The notes under the pieces: generated by a model
Told to the model about the DNA's origin: nothing
The model's input: only the letters and a program-made list of their open reading frames with translations
Database searches by the model: none
Shown: in pieces, positions 3,367-25,793 of the stretch
How the letters are laid out: every line of letters starts with the position of its first letter
Position numbering within the stretch: position 1 is the stretch's first letter
Program-made: the position numbers and the translations under genes
NCBI RefSeq assembly: GCF_053078305.1
Contig: NZ_CP166878.1
DNA from: a plasmid
Length of the DNA stretch: 32,715 nucleotides
Strand: one strand, 5' to 3'

Positions 3367-3612
3367 ATGAGAACAAATGTGGCAGTAAAAAAACGTAGTA
3401 TAAACGTATACTTAAATGCAGGGTTACTTGAAGAAGCAAAAGATCTTGATCTGAATGTTTCTGCTATCTCTAACAAAGCTCTCGAAAAAGCGGTAAGGGA
3501 GCGTAAGCGTGAACGCTGGATAGAAGAAAACCGTGCTGGCATTGAGGCATTAAACCGTTTTGTAGAAGATACCGGGATTTTTTCAGATGATGAAAATTTT
3601 GGGGTAATTTAG
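3367..3612 (+). CDS. ccdA: CcdA-family antitoxin
   Basis: Recognisable similarity to F-plasmid CcdA (VNISxxxxxxxxEARRxRAERWxxEN...FADENRDW pattern: NVSAISNKALEKAVRERKRERWIEENRAGIEALNRFVEDTGIFSDDENFG); ATG 3367 preceded by G-rich RBS; stop overlaps ccdB start. Confidence 0.85.
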   Translation: MRTNVAVKKRSINVYLNAGLLEEAKDLDLNVSAISNKALEKAVRERKRERWIEENRAGIEALNRFVEDTGIFSDDENFGVI

Positions 3613-3929: not shown

Positions 3930-3961
3930 TTTTTGCAGGGTAGTAAATAGTAAAAAATATC

Positions 3962-4155
3962 GCTGTAACATCGACGGTCTACGACCACCTACCAGCCGAG
4001 TGGCTGTCTGTTCCGTGCAAATGGGCTTTGCAGGGGGCTGGCGCGGTTCCTGGCGACCTGAAAGCCCCTGGTTAGGGGTATCGGCGCGACCTGGCATCTG
4101 TGACTCTATGAAACCATTTTTCGCGCCTTCCATGCCGCTAAAGCGGCATATTCCA
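3962..4155 (+). repeat. 194-bp repeat family, copy 2 (downstream of ccdB)
   Basis: Same length and ends as copy 1; about 20 substitutions clustered in hairpin-forming segments, several compensatory. Confidence 0.9.
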
Positions 4156-4233: not shown

Positions 4234-4560
4234 TTATGTGTCTGACATTTTTCCAATCATGATTTCTGTGAGATTTGTATCAGCAAAATCTCCTTTCCCC
4301 GATTCAGTGTCAAAGTCGCCTGGCGTGAACTTATGTACGTCTTGCCAGACTGCGAAGCAGGTAGGGCATGTTACAGGTAGTTCGCCCTCCGCTATCTTTT
4401 CACAACTTTCTACCAGTTCTTGTTTCTCGTTGTACCTGATGTTATAGCCGCTTGTGCAAAGCGTTTCATACCCGTGAGCGCCCGTCACTATATGTGTGGC
4501 GGTTCTTTCTGTGATTTTTCCATCAACTAATAACTGTTCATGCGTTGTGATCGTTTGCAT
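4234..4560 (-). CDS. Hypothetical Cys-rich protein (108 aa)
   Basis: ORF with CxxC-type cysteines (CTSGY...CEKIAEGELPVTCPTC); no family recognised; lies between repeat copy 2 and the virB3-like gene. Confidence 0.45.
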   Translation of the reverse strand: MQTITTHEQLLVDGKITERTATHIVTGAHGYETLCTSGYNIRYNEKQELVESCEKIAEGELPVTCPTCFAVWQDVHKFTPGDFDTESGKGDFADTNLTEIMIGKMSDT

Positions 4561-4704
4561 GTCTGTCTCTCATAATTGTTGGTTTATGTGATTGTTGGGG
4601 CGACCGTAAAAATATACGCCAGATGATGGGAGAGCATCTTATTTCGTATTGCTCAAAAAAACATATGACAAATATCACAAAAATGAAGTGCAGGTATTGA
4701 CATC

Positions 4705-4787: not shown

Positions 4788-5120
4788 ATGGCTGAAATAA
4801 AAGGAAAAATAACCAATCCCGCACTGGTTAATGCAAAAGTTTTTTACAACAGACGAACAAAGCTGGGGATACCTACAGAGGTCTTTTTGATCCTGATGTT
4901 CCTGAATGTTTTTGCTGTTGTGCTGTGTGTTATGTATTTCAGCACATTTTCCGTTATTTCGCTGATTTTATTTGTTCTGGTATCGGTTGTTCCTATGAAG
5001 TTCGTTTTTCATGGCGATCCCGATGCTCATAAAGCTTGGATTTATGGTTATTTGTCACCTTCCAGGCTGAACAATACCCACGCAGTGAAGCGTCGTATCA
5101 CATTTATAGACGCTATTTAG
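4788..5120 (+). CDS. virB3: VirB3-like small inner-membrane T4SS protein
   Basis: 110 aa, hydrophilic N-terminus then one long hydrophobic region (GIPTEVFLILMFLNVFAVVLCVMYF...); position immediately upstream of pilin and VirB4 genes. Confidence 0.55.
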   Translation: MAEIKGKITNPALVNAKVFYNRRTKLGIPTEVFLILMFLNVFAVVLCVMYFSTFSVISLILFVLVSVVPMKFVFHGDPDAHKAWIYGYLSPSRLNNTHAVKRRITFIDAI

Positions 5121-17293: not shown

Positions 17294-17340
17294 GGGGCGT
17301 TGAAAACGGAAAATAACCCACGCTAAGACTGTTTTTTAAC
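17294..17340 (+). repeat. Tn21-subfamily-like inverted repeat, left arm
   Basis: GGGGCGTTGAAAACGGAAAATAACCCACGCTAAG matches the inner 25 bp of the Tn21 IR (remembered ...CAGAAAACGGAAAATAAAGCACGCTAAG); inverted partner at 18563-18609. Confidence 0.6.
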
Positions 17341-17649
17341 CAGGCTATGATAATGCTATCTGTGACGGATGATGGTCGTTGCTCTTTTGTTAATGCTAAC
17401 GGATGCGTACATTAGCATTAACTTTTTGTGTTATGTTGCACGTGAATTTTTGAGTTTTAATATTTATATAATGTTATGAATATTAAAGATAAATGATGAA
17501 CATGCTTTGTGATGGCTTTTGGCGCATAGATTGATCTTAAGATCTGCGCATGTTATTTTTATGCGGTTTTGACGAATTTATAAGGGTAGGACGTTCCCGT
17601 AACAGCGTCCAGGGGAGGGGGTAGCGAATTTATAGCCCCCGGAATGCAA

Positions 17650-20221: not shown

Positions 20222-20340
20222 GTAGATAAATGACGTTGCTACGTGGTCTCCCTCTTTTGCTGATTTCACGTAGCACTCTCACTCTGCCGCTACTTCTCGT
20301 TATTCTGAACAGATGATTGAAAAATAAGGAGAATCAAATA

Positions 20341-20379
20341 ATCTCTTGATTTTATAATCCTATGATTATAAGATTGTTG
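20341..20379 (+). promoter_or_regulatory. Operator-like block P1 (CTTGATTTTATAATCCTATGATTATAAGATTGTT)
   Basis: About 85% identical over ~38 bp to 23919-23956 and related to the TGATT-repeat region upstream of parA. Confidence 0.5.
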
Positions 20380-20387
20380 TGTATGAG

Positions 20388-20409
20388 TGTTTGGATAGAG
20401 AATTATTGT
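20388..20409 (+). repeat. GTTTGGATA(TA)GAGAATT motif, copy a
   Basis: One of three direct copies (with 21113-21130 and 22086-22109); this copy lacks the TA dinucleotide. Confidence 0.8.
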
Positions 20410-21529: not shown

Positions 21530-21583
21530 TGATCGTGGCGCGATTGCCAGCGAGCTAGGGGTTCCGTGGGAATTTCTGCGATA

Positions 21584-21621
21584 GGGGTTTGAAGCCCAAC
21601 CGTACGAAAACGTACGCTAAG
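21584..21621 (+). mobile_element. Tn1000/Tn3-family 38-bp terminal inverted repeat
   Basis: GGGGTTTGAAGCCCAACCGTACGAAAACGTACGCTAAG, close to the gamma-delta/Tn3 IR consensus (GGGG...ACGAAAAC...ACG.TAAG); a resolvase gene remnant ends 2 bp away. Confidence 0.75.
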
Positions 21622-21622
21622 T

Positions 21623-21862
21623 TCATTTCTTGAACAACCTGGCTGACTCTATGTATTTGTACAGCGTTGGCCTCGATATCCCCATCAACACACAAATCTG
21701 CGCAACGGTATGTTTTTTCTCGTTATAGAGTTGAACAGCAAGGGCCTGTTTATCCTTACTCAGTGTTTTCGGCCTGCCGCCCTTACGTCCTCTGGCTCGT
21801 GCTGCTTGAAGCCCGGCCTGAGTTCTCTGGGGGGTCGCGCCCATTTCCTCTAAAAGTCTCAC
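21623..21862 (-). pseudogene. Serine recombinase (resolvase/invertase) C-terminal HTH fragment
   Basis: 79-aa ORF containing GRKGGRPK...HTVAQICVLMGISRPTLYKY, the C-terminal DNA-binding domain only; the catalytic N-terminal domain is missing. Confidence 0.7.
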
Positions 21863-21885
21863 CTTGCTTAGGTAATTAATTGAAT

Positions 21886-22100
21886 TTATTTATAAAACAT
21901 TGCAATTTTAGCATCATTTTTTATTGTTCTTTTTAACCTGAAGTACGTCGATCGAGAGATACCTGTTTTTTCTGTCACACTGCCCAGAGATTCTCCCTGT
22001 GATATAAGCTCCAACGCTGTAGGCGTTCGTGGATGCTTCTTCCTGCCAAATTTTACGCCTGCGGCAAGTGCCGCTATTGGGGTCAGTTTGGATATAGAGA
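21886..22100 (-). pseudogene. Second recombinase-like HTH fragment (no start codon)
   Basis: Minus-strand frame encodes ...AALAAGVKFGRKKHPRTPTALELISQGESLGSVTEKTGISRSTYFR, resembling a serine-recombinase C-terminus; the frame runs into motif copy c with no initiator. Confidence 0.4.
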
Positions 22101-22109
22101 ATTATTGTA
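22086..22109 (+). repeat. GTTTGGATATAGAGAATTATTGTA motif, copy c
   Basis: Third direct copy; lies at the 5' truncation point of the recombinase-like fragment. Confidence 0.8.
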
Positions 22110-22404
22110 CGGCAAGCCTGTTTTTTGAACAGACTTACCTATCGCGATAGGGTGTACTCCCGTGCTATACGGCGTTTTCAGGGGCTTTGGCCTTAATCGG
22201 ATAACCTAAATGCGACATAGCAAGAGCGATAACTTAAAGGCGATAGCCGCTGATGTTAAATCAATACGTTAGAATCTTAAATTGATTAAATAATGCGCTT
22301 AACGTACAAAAATTTCCGTTTCCCAAACCGCCCCCATATTGTACGTTTCCCTAACCGACCCCTTACTGGTCGCGGAAAAATCCAGGTTTCCGGCCTGGAA
22401 CCCC

Positions 22405-22536
22405 TATACAATCACTTGATTCGATAATTATAAAATTAAGTGATTTTATGATTGCATGATTCTATGAGCATGGGATTATTAGAATGTTTGGCAGAGGTAC
22501 TATGTGAACAAAGGGGAGGGGAAAATGCCTAAAGTT
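22405..22536 (+). repeat. Orphan duplicate of par promoter-operator plus first 4 parA codons
   Basis: About 94% identical over 132 bp to 24844-24975, including RBS and ATGCCTAAAGTT, then diverges; the operator inverted repeat is degenerate in this copy. Confidence 0.85.
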
Positions 22537-22614
22537 GGAGCAGCGGGAGCGTTCGAACAGAGACTTACGGTTTCGTTCTTTGTGCAGCAGTTGAAACCGT
22601 AATTATTTGTTTTA

Positions 22615-22865
22615 GGGGTTTGAGGCTCAGTGGAACAATAACCGCCGTTAAGCGGTCATTTTAAATAGCCAAAAATCAACCAGCCAATTTACATCGTGAA
22701 TCTGCGTTCTTGGCTATCTGTTTTGGGGGGCCAAGTTGGCTTTACTCATCCTGGCCGTTTGCGGAACAAAAGACGTTGTTGATCTCAACAGATTGATTAA
22801 CCTGTTATTGACCATTCAATTGAACCGCTTAACCGCCTTTTGAGTTCCACTACTCCCCAAACCCC
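22615..22865. mobile_element. Miniature Tn3-family element (TIME-like), 251 bp, with 5-bp target-site duplication
   Basis: 38-bp IRs GGGGTTTGAGGCTCAGTGGAACAATAACCGCCGTTAAG (22615-22652) and inverted GGGGTTTGGGGAGTAGTGGAACTCAAAAGGCGGTTAAG (22828-22865); flanked by direct repeat TTTTA on both sides; no ORF inside. Confidence 0.8.
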
Positions 22866-22882
22866 TTTTATGCCAAGTAGAA

Positions 22883-23091
22883 GGGGTTTGAGGGCCAACC
22901 GTACGAAAACGTACGGTAAGAGGAAAATTATCGTCTTAAAAATCGATTAGTAGACAATGCCGTCCGTTAAGTGCCAATTTTCGATTAAAAAGACACCGTT
23001 TTGATGGCGTTTTTCTATGTCCATTATGTTTTGATATATCAGACAGTTACTTCACTAACGTACGTTTTCGTTCCATTGGACTTCAGCCCCC
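22883..23091. mobile_element. Second miniature Tn3-family element (TIME-like), 209 bp, with 5-bp target-site duplication
   Basis: IR GGGGTTTGAGGGCCAACCGTACGAAAACGTACGGTAAG (22883-22920) and an inverted IR at 23054-23091 that contains TGGAACGAAAACGTACGTTA; flanked by TAGAA on both sides. Confidence 0.75.
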
Positions 23092-23111
23092 TAGAATACG
23101 TCAGATGTGTT

Positions 23112-23333
23112 CTACCTAGATTGTAGAGACTGAATTAGTGCTTCTACTGCCCAATCAGGACAGGTTCTGGAGCTTGGTTTATCCGGGTCATTAATCCAGG
23201 AACGGATAGTTCTTACAGAGCATGGTCGGTGAGTGTATTCACAAATTAGGTTCGCGGCTTGCGCCTGGGTTAACCCGTTATCAGTCAGTAACGTTATAAA
23301 TGCGGCACGGTTATCTGACACTATAAACCCCAT
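23112..23333 (-). CDS. Small putative DNA-binding protein (73 aa)
   Basis: HTH-like segment LTQAQAANLICEYTHRPCSVRTIRSWIN; overlaps the end of the upstream membrane-protein gene by 23 nt. Confidence 0.45.
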   Translation of the reverse strand: MGFIVSDNRAAFITLLTDNGLTQAQAANLICEYTHRPCSVRTIRSWINDPDKPSSRTCPDWAVEALIQSLQSR

Positions 23334-23805
23334 CTTTTTTGAACGTAATGCTAACCTGCCCTTCTGTCGGAACCTCCATTACTTCCCGGATCTTTTTATT
23401 TATGGCAATTTCGGTAGCGCTCACAAAGATCGGAATCCCTTTTGCCGCTATGCTGATAGCTACGGCAATAACCGTCAAAGCAATACAGTAGTATGTTATT
23501 ACTCTAATAATTTCAGCTATATTCTCAGAGGGGGAGTTTCTTAGAAATGTTATTAAATGTATTAATTCTGCTTGATGATAAATAGAATAAAACATAATAG
23601 AGGCAATAAATATTGCGAAACCATGAACAAAATAATGCCAGAGTTTAAGGGGTATTCTCCAAGCAAATCCAATGTAACTGAAAACTGAAGCCACATGAGT
23701 TCTCCAGTCTTTTTTTACTGATTTAACTATTTCTTCATATTGTGATATTGGCATTGAGCCGACTTCAATATTATTGACTTTAACTATCGCTATGCCCTCT
23801 TGCAT
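23311..23805 (-). CDS. Hypothetical membrane protein
   Basis: Start placed at the ATG preceded by a consensus AAGGAG RBS (ORF track extends to 23898); three to four hydrophobic helices. Confidence 0.55.
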   Translation of the reverse strand: MQEGIAIVKVNNIEVGSMPISQYEEIVKSVKKDWRTHVASVFSYIGFAWRIPLKLWHYFVHGFAIFIASIMFYSIYHQAELIHLITFLRNSPSENIAEIIRVITYYCIALTVIAVAISIAAKGIPIFVSATEIAINKKIREVMEVPTEGQVSITFKKDGVYSVR

Positions 23806-23918
23806 GACTTTGTTCTCCTTCTGCCATGATAAAAGATCTTGTTTTACATACCATGATAGGCACATGTGCCTGTTTGGTGCAACATGCTTTACAAACATAA
23901 GAATAATAAAAGGATATA

Positions 23919-23956
23919 ATCCCTTGATTTTGTAATCATATGATTATATGATTGTT
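23919..23956 (+). promoter_or_regulatory. Operator-like block P2 in divergent promoter region
   Basis: ATCCCTTGATTTTGTAATCATATGATTATATGATTGTT, homologous to P1 (20341-20379); lies between divergently oriented genes. Confidence 0.5.
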
Positions 23957-23985
23957 TTTGAGCGTGAATTATTCAGGAGGGAGTT

Positions 23986-24644: not shown

Positions 24645-24843
24645 GTTCATTAAAACCCCGTACAATATATTGTACGGGGGTAGTACAGAAGAGGTATTGG
24701 GTTGCTACATTTCCAGGTTATATGCAGAAACCATTTTTATTTTATCAGGTATTTATTTTTTCTTAATGAGATAGTTCACAAAATCATCAATCCAGGGACT
24801 GTTTTTCGTTATCTGCCGTATCTGCGTACCCCTGATTTTTTGG

Positions 24844-24963
24844 TATACAATCACTTGATTCGATAATCATAAAATCAAGTGATTTTATGATTGCATAATT
24901 TTATGAGTATGAGATTATTAGAATGTTTGGCAGAGGTACTATGTGAACAAAGGGGAGGGGCAA
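24844..24963 (+). promoter_or_regulatory. par promoter-operator (candidate centromere/operator)
   Basis: Perfect 12-bp inverted repeat AATCACTTGATT ... AATCAAGTGATT plus reiterated TGATT motifs directly upstream of parA. Confidence 0.6.
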
Positions 24964-25587
24964 ATGCCTAAAGTTATAGCATTTTTAAATGGTAAGGGGG
25001 GGGTGTCTAAGACAACCTCGGCAGTCAATATTGCTACTGCTCTTGCTCGTAAGGGATACAAAGTTGTCGTTGTGGATACCGATCCTCAGGGAAGTGTTAG
25101 TAACTGGTATGATGACAGTAAGTGTGTTTTTGATGTAGCAGAAGCTACGACAGAAAAAGAAATTTACCGTTTGCGGAAGGCGCTTCCTTTGCACGATTTT
25201 ATCATTATTGATGGTGCTGCGGCGATTTCGGCGATATCGGCAGCTGCTGTTATGGTTTCTGATCTTGTCATTATCCCAGTTACTCCTTCGCCGCTTGATT
25301 TTGCTGCATGTGGCGCGATATTGGCAGTGATAGAAGCTCGGCAGGATTTACGCCCGGTGATTGCTCGCTTTTTGATTACTAAAAAAGTACAGCAAACGCA
25401 TATGCTATCTTTGCTGAAAGAATCTATTGCAGAAACAAGCATACCAGCATTAAAAACAGGAACGTCGTACAGGCAGTCATATATAAAGTCTATGCTAGAT
25501 GGTGGTACTATATTTGATACAAAAGATAGTGCTGCTAAAGGTGAAATATCAGTCATTACAGAAGAAATACTTGGACTATTAAAATGA
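24964..25587 (+). CDS. parA: ParA-family partition ATPase (ParF-like)
   Basis: Deviant Walker [19 protein letters not shown]; ATG 24964 with GGGGAGGGG RBS (ORF track begins at upstream GTG 24943). Confidence 0.9.
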
Positions 25588-25793
25588 GTAAAATGAAACT
25601 TGGGAATCATAAGGCAACAAACACCGCTCTGGATGCACTAAAGAAACCTGCTGGAGCAACCAGGAAATTACAAATGAATATTCCAGAAGAGTTACACCTT
25701 GCATTTAAGTTAGCTTGTGTGGAAGATGGTGTCGATATGACACAGGTAAATATAGAACTAATTCAAAACTGGTTGAAGAGTCGTAACTTATAG
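25584..25793 (+). CDS. ParG-like ribbon-helix-helix centromere-binding protein
   Basis: 69 aa; start overlaps parA stop; C-terminal region [39 protein letters not shown] resembles ParG of TP228 as remembered. Confidence 0.65.

Follow-up and report, generated by a model that had tools for sequence, protein, structure and literature searches.

Why should a plasmid carry, upstream of its partition operon, a second copy of the very beginning of that operon? The stretch of DNA analysed here (32,715 nucleotides, hereafter the window) belongs to a ~30-kb E. coli plasmid family with an IncFII-type RepA. Positions 22405-22536 and 24844-24975 align without gaps and are identical at 125 of 132 bases (94.7%), the two copies differing at the other seven; start to start, they lie 2439 bp apart. 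The length and identity of the match exclude chance. The initial annotation had described a 132-bp segment about 94% identical to the par promoter, ribosome binding site and ATGCCTAAAGTT, located 2.4 kb upstream, and this is borne out by the alignment, as is its statement that the similarity ends after the fourth parA codon: divergence sets in at 22537, which is also the start of a transposon inverted repeat (IR). A repeat search pairs 22405-22542 with 24844-24981 at 93%, but the six extra bases were rejected as true homology and are a coincidence: the IR begins GGAGCA where parA reads ATAGCA.

The downstream copy belongs to an intact locus, composed as follows.

24844-24975, plus strand: real counterpart of the orphan copy, comprising the box array (24846-24925), the proximal region, the Shine-Dalgarno sequence and the parA ATG (24964)
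24964-25587, plus strand: ParF-like ParA of 207 residues (TP228 ParF structure PDB 4dzz, E 5.6e-71; Pfam AAA_31/CbiA)
25584-25793, plus strand: ParG of 69 residues (Pfam PF09274, 44.6 bits for a cut-off of 21.4; PDB 1p94, E 3e-7)

The ATPase, ParG and an array of tetramer boxes, the three features expected of a ParF/ParG locus, are all present, and the locus is a predicted partition operon of this kind (TP228-type, type Ib). The ParG protein of TP228 recognises tetramer boxes that lie upstream of parFG with 4-bp AT-rich spacers between them; the distal parH and the proximal OF are both centromeres, and OF is in addition an operator (PMC3130281). The resemblance to the parH-OF region of TP228 parFGH includes homologous ParF and ParG proteins and 4-bp boxes with an 8-bp period, some direct and some inverted, directly ahead of the ATPase gene. 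However, the boxes are GATT/AATC here and ACTC in TP228, about 10 units are present instead of 20, the partition genes do not follow the orphan array, and ParG binding is assumed here from the architecture.

The upstream copy retains much less.

22405-22536, plus strand: orphan par 5' sliver, delimited by alignment to 24844-24975, box phasing and the junctions in relatives
22407-22486, plus strand: orphan box array, ten 8-bp units with phased GATT/AATC-type boxes
22513-22521, plus strand: orphan Shine-Dalgarno run GGGGAGGGG, preceded by the conserved proximal segment
22525-22536, plus strand: first four parA codons, ATGCCTAAAGTT, with divergence starting at 22537
22525-22602, plus strand: chance 25-codon frame, MPKVGAAGAFEQRLTVSFFVQQLKP followed by a stop, in which the four parA codons are fused to the IR (direct reading of the sequence)

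No coding sequence follows codon 4 of the orphan, where the transposon IR takes over at 22537; the ParF-type ATPase gene is reduced to these four codons and parG is absent downstream. The peptide of 25 residues predicted from the retained ATG ends at a stop inside the IR. The RNA of the fused leader contains an 11-bp stem within the IR followed by a T-rich run, and overall it folds no better than shuffled sequences (z = -0.92). Both copies include ten phased 8-bp units, each carrying a GATT or AATC-type tetramer. Boxes agreeing with the consensus number 6 of 10 in the orphan and 7 at the real site (5-6 in other orphan alleles, 5-7 in real alleles). Since the orphan keeps phased boxes, ParG, if it is the protein that binds them, should bind there too, and the orphan array is probably still able to do so.

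The term "par promoter" used in the initial annotation is only partly appropriate. The copy is indeed a par 5' end with its box array and ribosome binding site, but the real locus's sole good sigma-70 match loses its -35 hexamer in the copy. At a threshold of at least 9 of 12 matching positions, this match is TTGGTA-16-GATAAT (24840-24867), which straddles the equivalent of the orphan's left border; the corresponding -35 hexamer of the orphan is replaced by IR sequence, and the same scan identified no comparable match inside the sliver. We would rather call the duplicated DNA a putative ParG operator/centromere array with its leader.

What delimits this sliver? On each side it abuts the outer end of a Tn3-family IR.

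22362-22404, minus strand: left solo Tn3-family IR, GGGGTTCCAGGCCGGAAACC...CAGTAAG, detected by a GGGG...TAAG pattern scan
22537-22614, plus strand: IR-B, the solo left end of a Tn3-family transposon, GGAGCAGCGGGAGCG..., recognised by homology to the pKPC_CAV1193 element

The left IR has the properties required of such an end, namely a terminal IR of about 38 bp that starts with GGGG, ends with TAAG and has an inverted partner elsewhere. Its outer end, at 22404, directly adjoins the first base of the sliver (22405). It is found paired in CP061000, where it serves as the right arm in a miniature element of 205 bp (L001, 4623-4827; arms 4623-4646 and 4804-4827). In CP061000 and CP088859 its outer end adjoins the equivalent of window position 23894, the whole of 22405-23893 being missing. 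The left flank is not the same in all carriers of the sliver: it is this IR in the window group and an ORF155 element in L020 and L031, with the same junction base. The swap between the two carrier groups would need one more recombination step.

A related junction occurs in another plasmid, pSK1402M2 (L048, NZ_AP046548.1), where the real par array (3480-3520) directly adjoins a truncated IR end of TIME type, and where a deletion has removed all DNA separating the 20338-type array from par. The junction, CCCC/GTATAC, lies 1 bp to the left of the position of the orphan's left border. We rejected pSK1402M2 as a recombinant of the two par copies: its IR is a different one and the junction is shifted by 1 bp, pointing to an independent event. 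From these two cases, the orphan and pSK1402M2, the array edge appears to be a recurrent Tn3-family junction.

Further to the left, 21555-22362 is a graveyard of Tn3-family remnants, with IRs at 21559, 21584, 22335 and 22362 and two fragments of resolvase C-terminal helix-turn-helix domains (21623-21862, with a Pfam HTH_7 match, and 21886-22014); compared with the window, CP045715 has parts of this region in inverted orientation. The larger region 21530-23900 includes at least seven IR fragments, and some relatives show inversions and swapped left flanks.

On the right, IR-B starts exactly at 22537, its subterminal sequence extends to about 22604, and the TTTTA at 22610-22614 is where the next element inserted. 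A complete transposon in pKPC_CAV1193 has a left end with ~87% identity to IR-B, the alignment running from the first base of that element, which carries 65-nt terminal inverted repeats, tnpR, a Tn3-family tnpA and a 5-bp duplication (ATCCA) on both sides. In Shigella plasmids, IR-B and the C-terminal end of a fragmentary Tn3-family tnpA overlap. The 77 bp that follow the sliver have no match in close relatives and recur at insertion edges in other plasmids. Their interpretation as a fragment of a DUF2726 gene was abandoned: the matches sat at the edges of transposon insertions, and this 77-bp piece was therefore identified as an IR. The two IRs bordering the sliver are of unrelated types and both are now solo ends, their partner ends having been lost.

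IR-B occupies the same place in 27 of the 29 relatives that carry ORF164 (see below), with at least six different outer (left) flanks. Apart from the sliver, IR-B is joined on its outer side to a palindrome with CATA (11 loci), to another IR (3 loci), to the interior of a 216-aa ORF (2 loci) or to one of two singleton flanks. Across these 27 related plasmids (IR-B at 22537-22574 in the window; L020-L047 for the relatives), the inner side, ORF73/ORF164, is constant while the outer flanks vary. A fixed and mostly precise IR-B with many flanks is the pattern expected of repeated end-anchored rearrangements, and IR-B is, as far as these comparisons go, a hot spot for rearrangements that all share a single IR as their anchor.

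The palindrome itself (32 bp, TTAATGCTAA...TTAGCATTAA, window 17294-17421) lies just inside an IR-like end at 17294-17327. Copies of it flank the 155-aa ORF of L020 (reverse complement, 3950-3982 and 4492-4524), and one copy adjoins IR-B in eleven relatives. It may correspond to a subterminal recombination site or an operator.

Between IR-B and the real par locus, the window includes two intact miniature elements and two reading frames.

22615-22865, no strand assigned: 251-bp Tn3-derived miniature element with 62-nt inverted arms, flanked by a TTTTA duplication (22610-22614 and 22866-22870)
22883-23091, no strand assigned: IS101-like 209-bp miniature element, flanked by a TAGAA duplication (22878-22882 and 23092-23096)
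23112-23333, minus strand: ORF73, between the par copies, missing from the complete-plasmid relatives, no Pfam match
23311-23805, minus strand: ORF164, between the par copies, missing from the complete-plasmid relatives, no Pfam match

The 251-bp element is inserted into the subterminal region of IR-B, and its empty site, TTTTA-TGCCAAG, is preserved in L020, L021, L022 and most other relatives. The second element is 93.8% identical over all 209 bp to pSC101 2024-2232, and its site is empty in L020-L023; IS101, a TIME of 209 bp, was originally discovered on pSC101 (PMC13367494). Unoccupied, the whole segment reads ...TTTTA-TGCCAAG-TAGAA-TACG... in the relatives. As the target duplications and these empty sites show, both elements are later insertions, which postdate the stump and did not create it.

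An alternative start for ORF164, giving a 195-aa product (23311-23898), was rejected: a protein of 164 aa is called elsewhere, including in the source assembly, and no recorded protein corresponds exactly to the 195-aa product. The longer frame is probably the 164-aa gene starting at its Met32 (23805), which has a good Shine-Dalgarno sequence. Homologues of ORF164 (42-99% identity) are carried by ~30-50-kb plasmids of E. coli, Salmonella, Pantoea, Serratia, Yersinia, Proteus and Providencia, and no par link was found in the context of the distant homologues on Serratia and Morganella plasmids.

How widespread is the sliver? In PLSDB and 5,426 complete E. coli genomes, the complete plasmids of the family all possess a single par promoter and all lack 22405-23893. 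Searching with the 164-aa ORF located between the copies led to many draft relatives that retain it, and 29 ORF164 loci were compared. Both junctions, CCCC/TATACAAT on the left and ATGCCTAAAGTT/GGAGCAGC on the right, are present in 8 of the 29 (the window's own contig, L020, L029, L031, L042, L044, L045 and L046). A ninth carrier, L021, exhibits the right junction only, its contig beginning inside the sliver. The same junctions recur in at least eight other E. coli assemblies and in a Logan read assembly. Judged by this distribution, the sliver with both its junctions is inherited in a sub-lineage of the ~30-kb E. coli IncFII-RepA plasmids.

No intact second par locus was found in relatives from PLSDB, complete genomes or drafts. 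Among the relatives we likewise found neither the predicted intermediate, a 2.4-kb tandem duplication, nor the product expected from recombination between the copies, in which the left IR would be joined directly to an intact par. An exact scan of genome and metagenome collections with an orphan-specific 28-mer gave no match; a degenerate version of the orphan pattern retrieved nothing from genomes and, from metagenomes, only three ordinary relatives with a single copy.

These comparisons bear on where the sliver came from. A spurious duplication introduced during contig building, the circumstance under which the initial annotation would have to be withdrawn, might be suspected since the window sequence is found in a draft contig (GCA_000736735.1, JPQG01000011.1) with numerous repeated miniature elements. 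However, the copies differ at 7 of 132 positions, the junctions are exact transposon ends, and they recur in independent assemblies and in the Logan read assembly; an artefact is hardly conceivable and is effectively refuted. Import of the sliver, together with the transposon ends, from the par locus of an unrelated or distant replicon would agree with the six private differences that separate the window orphan from the complete-plasmid relatives and with a best database match of only 95.5%, none being higher. In the wider sample, however, only two fixed differences between orphan and real alleles remain (a T in box 4 and a G in unit 9, both orphan-specific), and orphan alleles share polymorphisms with the real alleles of the plasmid family. 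The nearest out-of-family par promoter examined, that of pM172-1.1, is just 78% identical, and the exact-pattern scans revealed no source allele, all of which makes a foreign origin very improbable. Mean distances are 6.8 between orphans, 3.6 between real alleles and 8.9 between the two classes. Because of the two fixed differences, the shared polymorphisms and an orphan-real distance that does not greatly exceed the spread within classes, the orphan most likely derives from a par locus within this plasmid family.

Is the sliver maintained for a function? Selection might have kept it as an extra ParG centromere, as a repressor sink or as a ParG-controlled outward promoter, with a transcript extending into the transposon end and antisense to ORF73/ORF164. 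In favour of this, the 8-bp phasing and 5-6 consensus boxes are kept in five 132-bp alleles and one of 140 bp (L020) across at least nine assemblies, the L020 allele having eleven units with six consecutive GATT boxes, and the proximal 52 bp are almost invariant among orphans. Binding at several sites may moreover be normal in this plasmid, as arrays are also present at native promoters (20324-20390 and 23910-23970), and either half of the TP228 box array works as a centromere (PMC3130281). Against it, many close relatives lack the sliver and show no sign of compensation, the real locus's sole sigma-70 match of at least 9/12 loses its -35 in the copy, and the 25-codon frame downstream arose by chance when the parA codons were fused to the IR. 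Orphan variation comprises 14 sites in the array and 2 in the proximal 52 bp (binomial p ~0.02, from allele counts), which hints at residual constraint and would be equally explained by gene conversion or array hypermutability. Real and orphan alleles behave alike in that they vary only in the array, the proximal ~50 bp being nearly invariant; the real arrays vary in the same manner, and gene conversion or hypermutability accounts for the pattern without selection acting on the orphan. We regard selective maintenance as unlikely. A broader proposal, that the four arrays (20324, 22407, 23910 and 24846) would form one multi-site ParG partition or regulatory complex, with the orphan retained because an additional array, or ParG-controlled transcription running outward from it against ORF73/ORF164, would benefit the plasmid, and with array edges serving as preferred landing or deletion points for Tn3-family ends, is distinctly unlikely; its last element is suggested by the independent IR junction of pSK1402M2, 1 bp from the orphan's left border.

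We therefore return to the reading that we consider quite probable: the sliver would be a transposase-made relic of the family's par 5' end, caught between two Tn3-family ends, and now an extra putative ParG array that is dispensable. A plasmid dimer or a Tn3-type cointegrate could have supplied a second par copy originating from a family member. An end carrying IR-B would then have been joined to this second copy between parA codons 4 and 5, and a deletion anchored on the IR of the left element would have removed everything upstream of the array. This two-step path fits both junctions; the pathway and the former existence of a complete second locus are what we infer from them. The initial annotation had seen in the segment the stump of a second par locus destroyed by the adjacent Tn3-family insertions. 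It was right as to a par 5' end, which is bounded to the base by two IR outer ends. The intact miniature elements nearby came later and are not its makers, the flanking transposons are represented by solo ends, and the complete second locus is inferred.

The structure has counterparts among the deletions and slivers adjacent to Tn3-family ends (solo IRs and TIMEs such as IS101), with which it shares exact IR outer ends as borders and one end associated with many flanks. The miniature elements near the sliver, with their 5-bp duplications, are likewise typical of Tn3. It differs from the usual situation in that the right IR starts with GGAGC rather than GGGG and in that both flanking transposons are solo ends. 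The sliver is an ordinary rearrangement scar, a new example of a familiar kind.

As a relic rather than a working gene start, the sliver today most likely constitutes only an extra putative ParG-binding array in cis. It appears to encode nothing useful. Many relatives do without it, and it is therefore dispensable. The two effects put forward with its discovery, titration of the par repressor and seeding of homologous recombination, are plausible for the orphan.

Taken alone, the sliver carries little weight; it is a clean, datable scar of Tn3-family ends sculpting the backbone of a small E. coli plasmid. Short-read assemblies break at the two direct repeats of 132 bp, in which a Logan contig ends. 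Together with its junctions, the sliver provides a marker of the plasmid sub-lineage. If ParG binds the orphan, it would represent a natural second-centromere construct, for which the isogenic-like relatives without it offer a ready comparison of autoregulation and segregation.

More interesting are the ParG-type arrays at two native promoters and the repeated occurrence of Tn3-family ends at array edges. A phase-aware scan of the 32.7-kb window identified four arrays only, starting near 20324, 22407, 23910 and 24846, and none in 200 shuffles. The two that lie outside the par copies (20324-20390 and 23910-23970) consist of 8-bp-phased GATT/AATC boxes and are ~90% alike. The former lies upstream of a 162-aa ORF, the latter between ORF164 (minus strand) and a 91-aa ORF (plus strand). 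Their presence at native promoters suggests a ParG-type regulon or a multi-centromere arrangement. In pSM19035, the omega protein recognises, by a ribbon-helix-helix fold, the short phased repeats of parS1-3, which are located at several promoters and act both as operators and as centromeres. The parallel is an analogy only, one of the four arrays here being a transposon-bounded relic and ParG occupancy being putative.

The array of the real par locus is polymorphic, with 12 alleles among 28 loci and all differences within the first ~80 bp, and the 50 bp that precede the parA ATG are invariant in these 28 loci. Upstream of this array, a perfect hairpin with a 10-bp stem (CCCCGTACAATATATTGTACGGGG, 24656-24679) follows a 116-aa ORF. 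It was scanned as terminator-like on the minus strand only, where a T-rich tail (TTTTAATGAA) is present, the stem itself being palindromic. The core of the hairpin, GTACAATAT-ATTGTAC, is similar to the IR fragments that lie head to head at 22336-22362.
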